From the sequence record MK931439.1: a DNA stretch of 43,130 nt; one strand, 5' to 3'. Of this stretch, positions 3,332-27,350 are shown one piece after another. Under the pieces are notes generated by a model that searched no databases, was not told the origin of the DNA, and saw only the letters and a list, made by a program, of their open reading frames with translations. The stretch is from Escherichia phage Sciku. The position numbers were made by a program, and so were the translations under genes. Numbering within the stretch: the stretch's first letter is position 1; the number at the start of each line of letters is the position of its first letter.

Positions 3332-3358
3332 AAGGCCCTGTTATGGGGCCTTAGTTTT
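3332..3358. terminator. bidirectional rho-independent terminator
   Basis: AAGGCCC-N7-GGGCCTT hairpin followed by TTTTAT, between convergent portal gene and antisense gene. Confidence 0.6.
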
Positions 3359-3878
3359 ATTTAAATCGTGCGGGTATTAGCACCATAAATGCTGAGTTTG
3401 AAAATGATATTTTGCAACCTCTGGTTTGATCCTGGAAATCGAAACGAGCAATTACATTTTTGTATGCCTTAGAAATCTTGTACGCGTCAGCTAAATACTG
3501 CATAGCGAATCCTATACTATCAACCGCACCTGGCTCGATGCGCGCCACGCGCCTCCAGTCAGGAAAGTTTCCGTCTACAACATCTACCGGAAGTGTACAT
3601 ATAAGAGAACGACTATCGTCATAGAAGGAAACACTGCCGTTGGTATGGTTCACCTCCGCGTAGTTAAATTTAGATGGTTCTCTACCTTTGATGTCTATGA
3701 GAATCCCCTTCTCAACGTTTGTCTTCACATTGTCACAGAACAATCTACGACCATCCGTAGACACTATCAATCCTTCCGGGTCTATGTAAAAAGCGTTCAA
3801 ATAGTAGCGCGCATCATTTTTAGCCCTGCAGATTTTCGCCCCTACATACGCAGGGAAAGTAATAACGGTAGTAATCAT
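3357..3878 (-). CDS. hypothetical protein (antisense moron)
   Basis: 173 aa from ATG at 3878 with AGGAGG RBS 6 nt upstream; opposite strand to all flanking structural genes; no recognisable motif. Confidence 0.55.
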   Translation of the reverse strand: MITTVITFPAYVGAKICRAKNDARYYLNAFYIDPEGLIVSTDGRRLFCDNVKTNVEKGILIDIKGREPSKFNYAEVNHTNGSVSFYDDSRSLICTLPVDVVDGNFPDWRRVARIEPGAVDSIGFAMQYLADAYKISKAYKNVIARFDFQDQTRGCKISFSNSAFMVLIPARFK

Positions 3879-12242: not shown

Positions 12243-12271
12243 GGAAAAGGCCCCGAAAGGGGCCTTTTCCT
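12243..12271. terminator. bidirectional rho-independent terminator
   Basis: AAAAGGCCCC-GAAA-GGGGCCTTTT perfect hairpin with A-run upstream and T-run downstream. Confidence 0.7.
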
Positions 12272-12429
12272 TATTCCTTCAATTGCATTGGGTAGAAGTT
12301 AACGAGTTCTCCTTTATCCCGAAGCCGTGAATATTCATCTAACGCATCTTGCTGGCTACTCACTGCATAAATATCGTTCCACTCGTCCCATTCTTTGTCG
12401 TATACGCGGATTACATATATTGTTTTCAT
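12271..12429 (-). CDS. small hypothetical protein (moron island)
   Basis: 52 aa ORF MKTIYVIRVYDKEWDEW...; starts 8 nt after the upstream stop. Confidence 0.3.
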   Translation of the reverse strand: MKTIYVIRVYDKEWDEWNDIYAVSSQQDALDEYSRLRDKGELVNFYPMQLKE

Positions 12430-12436
12430 AATATTT

Positions 12437-12667
12437 TCACACATCAATGTTACTCCTGTACTCCCGTAACTTCTCCAGGCTTTCGATTGCCTCAGCTAAG
12501 TCTGTCCAGGTGTCCTTGTGACCACGTAAACCCATACACAATAGCTTCTTCAATGCGTGCTGTAACGCCGGGTCGCGTATGTCGAAGGCGCGTAGCACGT
12601 CGTAAACGTCTACAGTCATAGTGCTGCCGTAGGTGTTTGTCATTGTGCGGTTGTATTTATTTGTCAC
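12437..12667 (-). CDS. hypothetical protein (moron island)
   Basis: 76 aa minus-strand ORF; no motif recognised. Confidence 0.4.
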   Translation of the reverse strand: MTNKYNRTMTNTYGSTMTVDVYDVLRAFDIRDPALQHALKKLLCMGLRGHKDTWTDLAEAIESLEKLREYRSNIDV

Positions 12668-12857
12668 TGTTAACTCTCTTAAATCTGGCTATGCCTGACT
12701 CGTTAATGTTGCCTATTTCAAAGAAGCTGCGATATTTAGGCGAATACATTCTTACATCGCCATTCTCTAGGGTGACTCCTTCGTACACCGCACCTACTTC
12801 GAACCCATTTTTCTCTGCATACGGACTTACCTCGGTGCATTCATACATGTCTTTCAT
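12657..12857 (-). CDS. hypothetical protein (moron island)
   Basis: 66 aa minus-strand ORF overlapping both neighbours. Confidence 0.4.
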   Translation of the reverse strand: MKDMYECTEVSPYAEKNGFEVGAVYEGVTLENGDVRMYSPKYRSFFEIGNINESGIARFKRVNSDK

Positions 12858-13984
12858 CCCAGCATCTCCGGTGAAATAGTTAAACGTGCGACCTCGCCGT
12901 ATTCGGCGCTATAAGTAATTACATTTGCACTGCGGCCTGACATCCACCCGCCGCGGGAGGCGTAGGCATCTTTAGCCGCCAGGGTGCGGTGTTGTTCAAC
13001 AATCATGTTACGGCTTTCTACAATCTTTTGGTGGTGCAGGTGACCTACGTGGGCGTAGCTGTAAACACTCTCGCCGAACGCTTTGCGGAACTTGGCAATC
13101 ATAACCGGTTCGATAATGTCGAATCGCGCCTTATGCCCGTGATGAAAGAACAGCGTCGTTTTGCCGTGTTGCACCATCTTGTAAACATCCGGCGACGTGT
13201 CGACAATCACTCGGCTGTCGTTTGAGTATAAAGTCGCGAACATTTCCGCCAGCCATACGGACCCTACAGGATCGTGATTTCCTTGCACGATAAGCAAGCG
13301 AACGGTTTTATGTTTAACCAGCGCCATATCTACAACACGGCGGACCATACGAATCATGTAGCGGACAAGTTTCTGGTAGCGAGTGTCCGCGTCCAACACA
13401 TGACGTGACTCAGGTGTAACGGCGTCCAGACTATCGAAGTGTACGAAGTCTCCTAGCAGATTAATAACCCCTGTTCCTGCATCCGGTGCTTTCTGAAACG
13501 CCGCATCGAACCATCGAGAGAACAGGTCTTCCGCAATCTTCATATCCCAGTCGTCGCCGCTCTCGTCGGCCCATGCCAGCATACCAAGATGAAAATCAGA
13601 CACGGTGTAAAGATTGAGTAGCTTGTCGTCGCGTTTGGCTCGAGTCGCTTTAACAGGAGCAACGGGCGTAATCTCTGACTTCATGCCTTCGATCACGGCT
13701 TTCATCAATTCAACCTGACGTTCGGCATCGGTGTCGGTCTTAACCCATTGCAACTTAGTGTTGCCGAACTCATCCACAAGTGACGACGTTCCTTTAATCT
13801 TGTAGCCGTCCGGCACAAGGTGGCTAACGTCGCGCCCGTGACCTACGCCTTTCTTCGCCAGCTTCGCTTTACGGATACGGATAACGCGGTCTGAGATTCC
13901 ATACTTACGTGCGATATCAATAATTTTTGTTCCGGCGTTCAATTCTTCCCGTAACTGTTCGTCGGTTATTTTCTTATGAGCCAT
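12854..13984 (-). CDS. HTH domain - calcineurin-like metallophosphoesterase fusion protein
   Basis: N-terminal HTH-like IIDIARKYGISDRVIRIRKAK; then metallophosphoesterase signature blocks SDFHLG, GDFVHFD, GNHD, HHGH, GHLHH; GAGGAA RBS. Confidence 0.7.
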   Translation of the reverse strand: MAHKKITDEQLREELNAGTKIIDIARKYGISDRVIRIRKAKLAKKGVGHGRDVSHLVPDGYKIKGTSSLVDEFGNTKLQWVKTDTDAERQVELMKAVIEGMKSEITPVAPVKATRAKRDDKLLNLYTVSDFHLGMLAWADESGDDWDMKIAEDLFSRWFDAAFQKAPDAGTGVINLLGDFVHFDSLDAVTPESRHVLDADTRYQKLVRYMIRMVRRVVDMALVKHKTVRLLIVQGNHDPVGSVWLAEMFATLYSNDSRVIVDTSPDVYKMVQHGKTTLFFHHGHKARFDIIEPVMIAKFRKAFGESVYSYAHVGHLHHQKIVESRNMIVEQHRTLAAKDAYASRGGWMSGRSANVITYSAEYGEVARLTISPEMLG

Positions 13985-14023
13985 GCTTTACTTCCTCGTG
14001 TTTAGGATTTGTCCTATACTAGC

Positions 14024-14215
14024 TCACTTCTCTTTGACGTTCGAGTTGCACGCCCAGATTAAAATAAATACCCACGGCAGCAGAACCCAACCGAGAAACA
14101 GATTAGCCATGAATATCGCTAATTTAGCTTTATGGTTGCGCATATGCGCCACGAGAAATGGGATAAAATAAACTAAAACGATAATGATTAAGAAGAACAT
14201 AGTAATACCTGTCAT
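14024..14215 (-). CDS. small two-TM membrane protein, putative superinfection-immunity (Imm-like) protein
   Basis: 63 aa from ATG 14215 with AGGAGC RBS; two hydrophobic helices; LFLGWVLLPWVFILIWA resembles the Imm-type motif as I recall it. Confidence 0.45.
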   Translation of the reverse strand: MTGITMFFLIIIVLVYFIPFLVAHMRNHKAKLAIFMANLFLGWVLLPWVFILIWACNSNVKEK

Positions 14216-14255
14216 GGTGTAGCTCCTGTTCGAGTTAACATTGTTGGTGTAAGTG

Positions 14256-14285
14256 AATAGTATCCTATTATGTTGGGGTGCGCAA
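14256..14285 (-). promoter_or_regulatory. sigma70-like promoter with AATAG-N4-CTATT operator (type B)
   Basis: minus strand: -35 TTGCGC (14285-14280), 17-nt spacer, -10 TACTAT (14262-14257); 26-bp block here is an exact inverted copy of 37811-37836. Confidence 0.5.
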
Positions 14286-14393
14286 GTAATGTGATAGAAT
14301 AATTTTGCGCCTAGTGTCGCACACGAAAAGCGGGTGGTTCCCGTCTGGCGCATTTACCATTAACCTGTAACCTCTTAACCAAAGGATTAAAGA

Positions 14394-24750: not shown

Positions 24751-24888
24751 CTACTCTTCGGATAACTTCTCCAGTACAAACGCCAGTTGCGCATTAGCGG
24801 CGTCTCTCTGTTGCCGTAGTCGTAGAACCTCTTCTTCGAGTTCCTCGATACGTTTTTGCAATGCCGGAATTGGGGCTATGATGTTCAT
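24751..24888 (-). CDS. small coiled-coil hypothetical protein
   Basis: 45 aa ORF whose ATG overlaps the helicase stop (ATGA); heptad-like IEELEEEVLRLRQQ. Confidence 0.3.
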   Translation of the reverse strand: MNIIAPIPALQKRIEELEEEVLRLRQQRDAANAQLAFVLEKLSEE

Positions 24889-27350
24889 TTCTTACCTCGT
24901 CTCTTCATGTAATTAAGCAATTCTTCCTGTACAGATTTCTTCTCGTCGGTGCGCGCGGCAACAACCTCATCCAGCGTGTCTTTAGCGACGATGTGATAGA
25001 GGAACACCGGGCGCTCGTGTCCAGCCTGTTTCTGACGAACAGGGCCTATGCGCTCGACAACCTGCAAATAGTGCTCGAGGTTCCATCCCTGACTTATAAA
25101 CGCCAGATGATGCCCTCCATCCTGTAAATTCAAACCATGGCCGGCTGACGCGGGATGAACACATAAGATTTCGATTTCACCACGGTTCCACGCTTCCATC
25201 TGCTTATTACCCTTAGCTCCTTTGGCAAACGCCTTAGCCTGCGGGAATCGCTTAAGTATGCGCTCCAGTTCGTGTTTAAACTGATAGGCCACCAGTAACG
25301 GCGCGCCCTGCAACTCCTCAACAATGGACTCCAGTGCGTCCAGTTTCGTGTCATGCACTTTCTCCCAGTCTTTCGTTGCTTCGCCATCTGGCCCTGATAC
25401 ATACACGGCACCGGACGCAATCTGGAGACACTTTGATGTCTTCGCTGCCGCGTTAGCGGCTTCAACTTCCCCGCTCTCGAGTTCCGCAAATAACTTCTCC
25501 TCCATATCGATGTACGCCTGACGCGCTTTCTTCGGCAGGTCTATTTCAACAGGAACGATAATCGGCGCTTCGCAACCGAACCACTCTGCAGCATCGATAG
25601 TGAGACTGATATCCTTCATCTTCTGATGAATCTCGGTATCCGCGCCCGGGCGAGCGTGATACTCACGCGCCATAGCCGATTTGCCTTTCTGTATCGAATT
25701 AAACCAGCGGTCGGTAAACGCCGTATACGAAGAACCAAGTCGCTCGCCTGCGTCTATAAACCAGTTCTGCCCCCACAAGTCTTTGAGGCCGTTTGGTGAC
25801 GGCGTACCGGTCAGGTTGATAAAACGCTTAACCTTACCAAACGCCACTTTACTAAGCGCCTTTGCTCGCTTGCTGCCACCAGAACGGCTGCGGAACGATT
25901 TAAGCTTCGTGCTCTCGTCGGCAACGATAACTGTGAAAGGCCAGTCGTCTTTGCCGTAGTAGTCAATCAGCCACTCGATAACTTCGTAGTTAGTGCACAC
26001 CACGTTAGCGTCGGACTCAAGCGCCGTGATGCGGCGCTTCTCCGAACCGGTCGCATCTACTACACGCAGGCACGGGAAACCCCAACGTGCCTGTTCCGCG
26101 GGCCACGTGCCAGACGCAACACGCAACGGGGCGAGGATTAACACGCGGTCGTCGTCATTAAGTTGCCCATTACGGAACAGGCGGTTGAGAACCCACAACG
26201 TTGAGCTTGTATTGTGCGTGACAGTGAAGTCCCCCAATAAAAACCTACTGTCACCGTCGATAGTGAAGCCGAAATAATCATCTACGCCGACCGGGGTTAT
26301 GGATTCTATACCAACGTTAAGCACGTTCTTATTAATATTACGCTTCGGTAAATTCTGGTGGCGTCCTCGCACGAAAGGTACCTCAGAAAAATCGCCAGAT
26401 ACCGACACACGGAAGTAGTCACCCCAAACATCAGTGTTTGCGCAACGCTTACGAGTTTTCTTCTTGTAAGCAGCAAAACCAAGAGAACGGCATAGATAGC
26501 AAAAATCATCAGCAAGTCGCTCGCTTACCGAAATCCAGTCAAAACCCGCTTTAGACAAATCGCAGTAACCATCACTATCCAGAAGCCCCGCCAGCAATTC
26601 TAACCGCTGTCGCCGGTCGCCGCATTTGTAACTATGCGGTATATGCTTATTGTTCAGGACACCCGCCGATTTCAGCGCGTGCGTAAACCCGTGCTTCTTA
26701 TGACCTGTGTTGCCGTAAGATATACTCCATGTAAGTCCTTCTTTTCGTATTTGCATCCCATTACGTGCTGCGTACGACTCAAGATAAGCCCTTATTTCCT
26801 TTTCGTTCTCTCCTGATGTTATGGCCCCCGACGACGAAGTACCGTCACCCAGCCATAACCCCATAAGGTACGGAGGCAATAAAGCCTCGTCCTGCTCTTT
26901 CCTTGTAAAATCGACAGGTACCCGCCAACCCTTAAGATACCCATTAGGTCCGGTTACATATTTCGGCAACTTAAGCCAGTCGCGGACGCTTATGTCGAAA
27001 ACGGTATTATCTGGCCATGAACCTTTTGCAATCCCTGTAGTAGTTCGCAGGGATAATATATGGCTTTCGTTGACCGTATACGACTCTCCTTTTCGCGGTT
27101 TAACCTCGTACATCATCTCCCGGCCTCTACCGAGAGACAGTACATTTCTAGGCGTTGAATCCGGCCCCATAAGCACGTCACCGACGATGACGTCTTCTAC
27201 TTTCTTGGTCGTACCGTCAAACATAATAACTTCCGTCCCGCGTTTCAGGCACTTGCCGCTGCCCATACTAGCCCAGATATTGCAACGTGGGTGCTGTAAC
27301 ATAAACGACGTCATTATTTTCTGGTATTCCCTGCGCCTAAATTTACTCAT
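24885..27350 (-). CDS. SNF2-family helicase precursor containing an intein
   Basis: motif I ASMGSGK|T interrupted after Lys33 by a 347-aa insert; C-terminal helicase region with GHGLNLQ; mature protein predicted 474 aa. Confidence 0.8.
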   Translation of the reverse strand: MSKFRRREYQKIMTSFMLQHPRCNIWASMGSGKCLKRGTEVIMFDGTTKKVEDVIVGDVLMGPDSTPRNVLSLGRGREMMYEVKPRKGESYTVNESHILSLRTTTGIAKGSWPDNTVFDISVRDWLKLPKYVTGPNGYLKGWRVPVDFTRKEQDEALLPPYLMGLWLGDGTSSSGAITSGENEKEIRAYLESYAARNGMQIRKEGLTWSISYGNTGHKKHGFTHALKSAGVLNNKHIPHSYKCGDRRQRLELLAGLLDSDGYCDLSKAGFDWISVSERLADDFCYLCRSLGFAAYKKKTRKRCANTDVWGDYFRVSVSGDFSEVPFVRGRHQNLPKRNINKNVLNVGIESITPVGVDDYFGFTIDGDSRFLLGDFTVTHNTSSTLWVLNRLFRNGQLNDDDRVLILAPLRVASGTWPAEQARWGFPCLRVVDATGSEKRRITALESDANVVCTNYEVIEWLIDYYGKDDWPFTVIVADESTKLKSFRSRSGGSKRAKALSKVAFGKVKRFINLTGTPSPNGLKDLWGQNWFIDAGERLGSSYTAFTDRWFNSIQKGKSAMAREYHARPGADTEIHQKMKDISLTIDAAEWFGCEAPIIVPVEIDLPKKARQAYIDMEEKLFAELESGEVEAANAAAKTSKCLQIASGAVYVSGPDGEATKDWEKVHDTKLDALESIVEELQGAPLLVAYQFKHELERILKRFPQAKAFAKGAKGNKQMEAWNRGEIEILCVHPASAGHGLNLQDGGHHLAFISQGWNLEHYLQVVERIGPVRQKQAGHERPVFLYHIVAKDTLDEVVAARTDEKKSVQEELLNYMKRRGKK
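26211..27251 (-). mobile_element. intein with LAGLIDADG homing-endonuclease domain
   Basis: begins with Cys (TGC at 27251-27249), ends His-Asn (26216-26211) before Thr +1; two LAGLIDADG motifs YLMGLWLGDGT and LLAGLLDSDGY; in frame, 1041 nt. Confidence 0.8.

Follow-up and report, generated by a model that had tools for sequence, protein, structure and literature searches.

A stand-alone metallophosphoesterase (MPP) that acts without Rad50 is described for phage T5, where A1 is both necessary and sufficient for the degradation of host DNA and works with a separate DNA-binding protein, A2; its reported structural neighbours are double-strand-break-repair nucleases and polymerase proofreading subunits (bioRxiv 10.64898/2026.04.02.716235). 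Another phage enzyme of this superfamily, the MPE of Cluster A mycobacteriophages (A10ZJ24 Gp48), is a phosphodiesterase that damages the host genomic DNA early and blunts the expression of defence genes (PMC12287305). In Pseudomonas putida, MPE/PdeM, the ligase-associated endonuclease of the DNA-damage response, is a small Mn2+ MPP acting on ssDNA; its gene is accompanied by those for a DNA ligase, an exonuclease and a helicase, and it leaves mixed 3'-PO4 and 3'-OH ends (PMC7826289).

The protein considered here is encoded in a 43,130-nucleotide stretch of DNA from Escherichia phage Sciku (MK931439.1), referred to below as the window. Its gene, the sole long ORF in this place, occupies 12854-13984 of the minus strand and codes for 376 aa before the stop codon; the coordinates of its parts and of the adjacent features are given in Table 1. 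The product has the same sequence as QEA09421.1 from phage Shashou (100% identity in tblastn), and the 3.2 kb around the gene match this Escherichia phage (MK931440; Kagunavirus, Guernseyvirinae) at 99.8% identity. The gene lies within a short minus-strand cassette (12271-14360) inserted between the plus-strand genes for the tail tube and the tail-assembly chaperone, the other members being an Imm-type superinfection immunity gene and several small ORFs, the first of which has its start overlapped by the MPP stop as ATGA. A promoter scan of the cassette gave no signal above background. In sister phages the slot of the three small ORFs is occupied by a Pnkp-type phosphatase and a P-loop kinase. 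BLASTP yields no alignment between the 76-aa ORF of the window and the K1G kinase, and the ORF was therefore rejected as a remnant of that kinase.

Table 1. Features of the MPP gene and its cassette in the window (strand: -, minus;., both)
Feature	Coordinates	Strand	Remarks
Whole gene, HTH-linker-MPP protein, 376 aa	12854..13984	-	stop codon 12854-12856; corresponds to CPT_Shashou_023, QEA09421.1
Shine-Dalgarno sequence GAGGAAG, 5' of the MPP gene ATG	13991..13997	-	GenBank record: 13994-13997
N-terminal three-helix HTH, aa 8-43, LuxR/GerE/sigma-70 region 4-like	13856..13963	-	pI 10.3
Family-specific linker module, aa ~58-105	13670..13813	-	G74 and W80 nearly invariant; between HTH and catalytic domain
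Binuclear metallophosphoesterase catalytic domain, aa 119-376	12857..13630	-	alignment, Pfam, predicted structure
Motif I SDFHLG, aa 129-134	13583..13600	-	metal ligands D130, H132
Motif II GDFVHFD, aa 178-184	13433..13453	-	D179 bridging ligand; Mre11-like GDxxH
Family-specific conserved insert VTPxSxHxLDxDxR	13379..13420	-	between motifs II and III
Motif III GNHD, aa 235-238	13271..13282	-	N236 ligand, H237 catalytic His
Motif IV HHGH, aa 281-284	13133..13144	-	H282 invariant
Motif V GHLHH, aa 314-318	13031..13045	-	H315, H317
Upstream cassette gene, Imm-type superinfection immunity protein	14024..14215	-	PF14373, E 8e-14
Three small downstream ORFs (66, 76, 58 aa)	12271..12857	-	first overlaps MPP stop (ATGA)
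Bidirectional terminator	12245..12268	.	GenBank annotation; closes the minus-strand cassette against the tail-tube gene

Both the exact protein (in GenBank) and its family (in PHROGs) are already known, so that spotting the protein discovers nothing new. Residues 4-375 align with positions 2-389/390 of the profile of phrog_704, labelled 'DNA repair exonuclease', at an E-value of 1.1e-161. A representative search yielded 4585 clusters at 50% identity (E<=1e-3), or 1127 at E<=1e-30, nearly all of them 370-420 aa long and aligned end to end, and tblastn found homologues in 2038 of 50,697 phage records (~4%). Thus, the HTH-MPP fusion, regarded as unusual in the initial annotation, is the fixed layout of phrog_704. 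The carriers include Guernseyvirinae, Dhillonvirus (HK578), Sodalis phage SO-1, the Drexlerviridae T1 (gp16), Sfin-1 and Klebsiella T1-like phages, the Klebsiella myophages vB_KpnM_KpV52 and vB_KpnM_IME346, the temperate phage mEp021, Vibrio phages, podoviruses of Ruegeria and Dinoroseobacter, Campylobacter CP30A and Rhodobacter RcAqua; further copies are present on large alphaproteobacterial chromosomal contigs. The labels given to these proteins conflict, ranging over phosphatase, phosphoesterase, DNA repair exonuclease, DNA polymerase II small subunit, transcriptional regulator and winged-HTH protein. NCBIfam returned no match for the window protein and the PADLOC defence-system models 0 families at E<=1, and no biochemical or genetic study of any family member was found in the searchable literature; a preprint on Tn-seq in phages does not include the family. 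About 2000 sequenced phages carry a member, among them T1 and many candidates for phage therapy directed at E. coli, Salmonella and Klebsiella.

The composition proposed from the sequence at the outset, an N-terminal helix-turn-helix (HTH) of about 45 residues preceding a calcineurin-like MPP, holds: the motifs are conserved in 65 sequences, the HTH is matched at the family level, and both parts appear in the AlphaFold2 model. For the window protein alone, the HTH matches are sub-threshold (Pfam HTH_Tnp_1, E 0.081; LrpA HTH, E 0.95). In comparison, its homologues match Sigma70_r4_2 (1.5e-9), GerE (2.4e-8), HTH_1, HTH_28, HTH_23 and others, and the best PDB match of the family profile is GerE (1fse, E 0.022). 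An HTH of the LuxR/GerE/sigma-70 region 4 type is therefore solid at the family level and a hint for the window protein taken by itself. The alignment-based model places three helices at residues 8-16, 21-28 and 32-43 of this basic segment, which varies more than any other part of the protein; alignments with homologues often begin at residue 25-60. Between the HTH and the catalytic domain, the same model shows a beta-hairpin (61-70/76-85) and a helix (87-103), a linker module that the initial annotation had missed.

The catalytic domain carries the five MPP motifs in order, with seven metal ligands and the catalytic His, which places the protein in the superfamily. The canonical order of these blocks had been read correctly, except that motif II is GDxxH(xD) and not GDxxD. 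In an alignment of the window protein with 64 homologues of 33-50% identity, D130, H132, G178, D179, N236, H237, H282, G314 and H317 are invariant, and H182, D184, D238 and H315 are conserved to at least 90%, as are T190, L197, D198, D200 and R202 of the insert between motifs II and III. Since the metal ligands and the catalytic His are retained across the 65 sequences (H315 in at least 90% of them), the window protein is predicted to be an active enzyme rather than a relic. The Pfam models Metallophos and Metallophos_2 do not capture so divergent a family: the scores stay below the gathering cut-offs (19.5 bits versus 21.5 and 22.2 versus 27, respectively), and few homologues match them (just 14 and 11 of 65 at E<=0.01).

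Single-sequence AlphaFold2 prediction was unusable (pLDDT 40), and the 65-sequence alignment was used instead, giving a model with pLDDT 92.9 and pTM 0.81 in which the MPP alpha/beta sandwich is unambiguous. The highest-scoring fold neighbours (scores in brackets) were the PolD DP1 proofreading exonuclease (15.7), Thermotoga maritima Mre11 (15.1) and Staphylococcus aureus SbcD (15.0), followed by LpxH (13.6), MJ0936 (13.5), other Mre11 and SbcD entries (12.4-13.5) and Rv0805 (12.2), with protein phosphatase PP5 (9.1) and P. putida MPE (8.7) further down. Foldseek against the PDB, which holds no solved structure of a phrog_704-type family member, placed Rv0805, DP1 and Mre11 on top, all with low TM-scores, and a BFVD search returned uncharacterised phage proteins only.

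On the level of profiles, the best MPP match of the family in the PDB was T. maritima Mre11/SbcD at an E-value of about 0.1 (range 0.098-0.5), the T. maritima Mre11 alignment spanning motifs I-II with the 'HLG...W' stretch. When the family profile was compared with single sequences by hhalign, the probabilities were 15.3% for T5 A1, 3.7% for E. coli SbcD and 0.4% for lambda NinI, T5 A1 being the nearest of those tested, though weakly. Against a family profile built from eight aligned T5 A1 homologues, the probability was 21.6% (E 1e-3); the 124 aligned columns start at motif III, reach the C-terminus and include NHDxxxSxWL and the terminal ITY strand, a match that hints at a specific relationship beyond the common superfamily but falls short of proving it. 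The 'phosphatase' label of CPT_Shashou_023 in GenBank refers to an HHpred match with lambda phosphatase; this identity was rejected at the family level by the structure comparison and by the hhalign value for NinI. Overall, the nuclease branch of the superfamily is favoured and the PPP phosphatase branch disfavoured. The profile search and structure prediction suggested in the initial annotation for placing the protein thus recovered a Mre11/SbcD/DP1-like fold, with no significant support for membership of a specific MPP family.

Gene neighbourhoods were compared in 80 IMG/VR loci (51-98% identity, with an 8-sequence alignment as the query), in which the ORFs were clustered and the recurrent neighbours annotated. 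Five contexts were distinguished. In Kagunavirus loci, the MPP gene is followed by small ORFs or, in 14 of 50, by a HAD phosphatase and a P-loop kinase, and HNH genes are inserted in some. The HAD phosphatase (161 aa) matches Pfam HAD_PNKP at 7e-20, its nearest PDB entries being Pnkp1, which belongs to an RNA-repair system (1.7e-6), and the polynucleotide kinase of T4; the kinase (184 aa) matches phrog_139 at 6e-46, a PHROG labelled dNMP kinase. The T7-like loci have the order DNA polymerase, 5'-3' exonuclease, MPP, HAD_PNKP and dGTP diphosphohydrolase, with RNA polymerase further along, and in a third group the MPP gene stands between 5'-3' exonuclease and endonuclease VII genes on one side and HAD_PNKP, kinase and ATP-dependent DNA ligase genes on the other. 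In lambdoid-type loci it lies between NinG and Q, ahead of holin and terminase, which is the slot of lambda ninI, and in HK578-type loci it separates the lysis genes from terminase. Elsewhere, it is found between the replication genes and DnaB (mEp021) or after helicase, VRR-NUC and Dam (T1 and Sfin-1), and a P-loop kinase is again located downstream in four alphaproteobacterial chromosomal loci. Linkage with the Pnkp-type phosphatase occurs in 3 of 11 clades (70% identity), and these three have otherwise unrelated genome architectures. No Rad50/SbcC-like protein was present in the annotated Shashou genome or among the annotated recurrent neighbour clusters. The K1G HAD phosphatase was also considered as an equivalent of T5 Dmp, and the two share the common HAD motif I only, too little to equate them.

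An important question is what such an enzyme acts upon. On balance, the evidence leans towards a stand-alone DNA nuclease held on DNA by its own HTH. It would be a binuclear metallophosphoesterase, probably Mn2+-dependent, with a core of the Mre11/SbcD/PolD-DP1 type that has neither a Rad50/SbcC ATPase partner nor a capping domain; the basic N-terminal HTH would hold the enzyme on DNA instead, and the family-specific hairpin-helix module would join it to the catalytic domain. During infection, this enzyme may cut or trim DNA, its targets being either phage DNA in replication or recombination, whose ends and structures it would process, or the DNA of the host, which it would break down, and our expectation is divided roughly evenly between the processing of phage DNA intermediates and host-DNA degradation. 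In many relatives, the products would probably be taken over by the proteins of the next genes, namely the T4-Pnkp-type 3'-phosphatase, the P-loop kinase and sometimes the ATP-dependent DNA ligase. 3'-PO4 ends of the kind left by P. putida MPE would explain the adjacent 3'-phosphatase and kinase.

This preference for a nuclease is based on several lines of evidence: motifs I-III are of the Mre11/SbcD type, (S/T)DxHLG, GDxxH and GNHD, rather than the GDxVDRG/GNHE of PPP enzymes; lambda phosphatase is all but invisible to the family profile in hhalign; the neighbours are DNA-metabolism genes, and the P-loop kinase recurs behind the gene even where this is located on alphaproteobacterial chromosomes; T5 A1 and Gp48 are precedents for DNA degradation by a phage MPP that stands alone; and the HTH is real and basic. 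The three roles listed in the initial annotation (dephosphorylation of host proteins, processing of DNA ends, degradation of nucleotide second messengers) were a reasonable choice; the sequence alone was said there not to discriminate between them, and the motifs, the hhalign comparisons and the neighbours now tip the balance toward the nuclease. Against a nuclease speak the non-significant links to Mre11/SbcD (E ~0.1; SbcD 3.7%) and T5 A1 (21.6%), the Pfam MPP scores below gathering thresholds, the position of the gene in this phage, outside the replication module and in a reverse cassette of accessory appearance, beside a gene for superinfection immunity, and the restriction of the Pnkp linkage to 3 of the 11 clades.

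The accessory look of the cassette is also what one would expect if the protein were a small-molecule or protein phosphodiesterase or phosphatase, that is, an accessory or counter-defence enzyme directed at cyclic (oligo)nucleotide immune signals, cAMP-type messengers or phosphoproteins. Such a function seems unlikely, and so does its corollary, in which the HTH would be an autoregulator of its own cassette by analogy with anti-CRISPR-associated HTH fusions. The Foldseek match, with its low TM-score, to Rv0805, which like CpdA is a class III cyclic-nucleotide phosphodiesterase, agrees with it, as does the ninI-like position in lambdoid loci: lambda NinI, a PPP Ser/Thr phosphatase of the MPP superfamily, occupies the same NinG-to-Q slot. 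The window protein, however, has SDFHLG, GDFVHFD and GNHD where a PPP enzyme has GDxHG, GDxVDRG and GNHE, and it has no profile similarity to that family.

The recurrence of a HAD phosphatase closest to Pnkp1 and T4 polynucleotide kinase, together with a P-loop kinase, could alternatively point to RNA end healing, with the MPP serving as a 2',3'-cyclic phosphodiesterase or 3'-phosphatase. The Pnkp of Clostridium thermocellum uses an MPP domain for this purpose. By analogy with T4 Pnkp/Rnl1 or bacterial Pnkp, the system might even repair tRNAs cut by host anticodon nucleases. Both the general and the tRNA-specific version are improbable, as no RNA ligase was seen in any neighbourhood, the sole ligase being an ATP-dependent DNA ligase; the MPP domain of Pnkp is of the lambda-phosphatase type, unlike the window protein; the Pnkp genes are absent from the window and from most clades; and the kinase belongs with a PHROG labelled dNMP kinase.

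It is very improbable that the protein is primarily a transcription regulator, for example an activator or repressor of late genes, that acts through its HTH and has an MPP domain which is degenerate or works as a sensor. Three observations suggest this: the likeness of the HTH to sigma-70 region 4 and LuxR effector domains, a weak match (E 0.0011) between aa 4-36 and phrog_836, labelled 'late transcriptional activator', and the label 'transcriptional regulator' of a homologue in one GenBank record. In comparison, the catalytic residues are conserved over a very large and divergent family, which argues for an enzymatic function, and the presumed effector shows the lowest conservation in the protein. 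A role as an accessory or proofreading subunit of a DNA polymerase, comparable to DP1 of archaeal PolD or to the B-subunits of eukaryotes, is likewise very improbable, given that identity to DP1 (a 3'-5' proofreading exonuclease) is only 12-13%, no OB fold is predicted N-terminal to the MPP domain, the phage has a family-A Pol I and no DP2-like catalytic subunit or B-family partner, and the gene does not adjoin a polymerase in most lineages.

If the protein is indeed a self-tethered, Rad50-free nuclease, it would represent a compact design for a Mre11-like enzyme and might account for host-DNA breakdown or end processing in the phages carrying it; the recurring pairing with a Pnkp-type phosphatase, kinase and ligase offers a concrete, testable model. 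A more specific version, possible although rather unlikely, is that it is the single-chain counterpart of T5 A1-A2, an HTH-guided, Rad50-independent MPP nuclease that many phages, T1 with its gp16 among them, would employ for the early demolition or disabling of the host chromosome. In that case, inducible defences would also be blunted, recycling or repair of the products would fall to the neighbouring Pnkp-type phosphatase and kinase, and a host-takeover nuclease of ~4% of sequenced phage genomes would have been overlooked under the name 'DNA repair exonuclease'. As a lead only, the T1 genetic locus '2.5', which we take to be concerned with host DNA degradation, might be T1 gp16; the T1 sequence record itself has no link to the genetic map.

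Compared with Mre11/SbcD, the window protein has the motif variants in common (SDFHLG, GDFVH and GNHD for (S/T)DxHLG, GDxxH and GNHD), although no sequence or profile similarity reaches significance. There is no room for the capping domain and the Rad50-binding helices of these nucleases, as the chain ends 58 aa past motif V, with strands of the core sandwich, and has no SbcD_C or Mre11_DNA_bind match in Pfam. What it has, in contrast, is the N-terminal HTH and the hairpin-helix module, and no Rad50/SbcC gene accompanies it. Mycobacteriophage Gp48, compared by its published description only, carries all five MPP motifs, and that description makes no mention of an HTH (PMC12287305). T5 A1 is reported to have the same kinds of structural neighbours as the window protein, but it is longer (556 aa), differs in its N-terminal half and works with the separate A2 where a fused HTH is found here; its homologues occur in 1135 phage records, a set of their own. 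They are encoded beside a gene for an A2-like DNA-binding protein and one labelled 'polynucleotide kinase' or Dmp (HAD) phosphatase, in parallel with the Pnkp and kinase neighbourhoods of the window-protein family.

The stretch immediately downstream of the metallophosphoesterase (MPP) gene, which joins a helix-turn-helix (HTH) domain to the phosphoesterase, is a polymorphic slot, and its content differs between otherwise near-identical Kagunavirus genomes. In Sciku, it holds three small ORFs. Among 50 related loci, 14 carry a Pnkp-type HAD phosphatase together with a P-loop kinase at this position; others have an HNH endonuclease gene or a Rha-like one instead. The P-loop kinase cluster appeared again within a few genes downstream of the family's copies on alphaproteobacterial chromosomal contigs (L087, L089, L090 and L100; 33–50% identity), which are often longer, at 420–640 aa by crude ORF calls.

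Among the ORFs of the Sciku slot, the 76-aa one matched phrog_2452 (9e-38, profile positions 150–220 of 235) as well as phrog_17613, labeled ‘ATPase’, and had no match in Pfam. Since the PHROG matches were confined to the C-terminal third of longer families, this ORF looks like a C-terminal fragment or a stand-alone domain. No similarity was detected between it and the K1G kinase, the occupant of the slot in sister phages. Directly upstream of the MPP gene, the same minus-strand cassette inside the tail gene cluster encodes a superinfection immunity protein resembling T4 Imm (PF14373, 8e-14).

Features of the Sciku genome considered here
Feature	Position	Strand	Remark
Second reverse-oriented gene within the structural module	3357-3878	-	Annotated ‘DNA polymerase III sliding clamp’
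Slot following the MPP gene	12271-12857	-	Compared with L003 4128-5167 (phage K1G)
76-aa ORF	12437-12667	-	GenBank label ‘phosphodiesterase’, no evidence given
Imm-like gene	14024-14215	-	
Helicase gene with annotated intein	24885-27266	-	

For the other reverse-oriented gene of the structural module, the sliding-clamp label is uncertain: the best PHROG match was phrog_3007, labeled RusA-like Holliday junction resolvase (2e-33), processivity-factor families matched less well (6e-7), and Pfam gave no match. Elsewhere in the genome, according to the GenBank annotation, the helicase gene is interrupted by an intein that carries a homing-endonuclease domain.

Homologues of the stand-alone phage MPP T5 A1 (sampled, with A1 itself, as loci L104-L111) are carried by 1135 phage records and range well outside Demerecviridae, for example, in the T7-like Agrobacterium phage Atu_ph02, giant Caulobacter phages and Flavobacterium Elemovirus. 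Two of them, from Vibrio phage D332 and Aeromonas phage AhSzq-1, have as neighbors an A2-like gene for DNA binding and a gene labeled ‘polynucleotide kinase’ or Dmp. The annotation of one Vibrio homologue reads ‘homeodomain-like protein’.

In lambdoid-type loci from IMG/VR (L062-L065, L071, L078 and L081-L086), the HTH-MPP gene lies between NinG and the antiterminator Q. Lambda itself keeps the Ser/Thr phosphatase NinI in this position, an MPP of an unrelated branch. The HTH-MPP gene may represent either a functional replacement or simply an occupant of a permissive insertion site.
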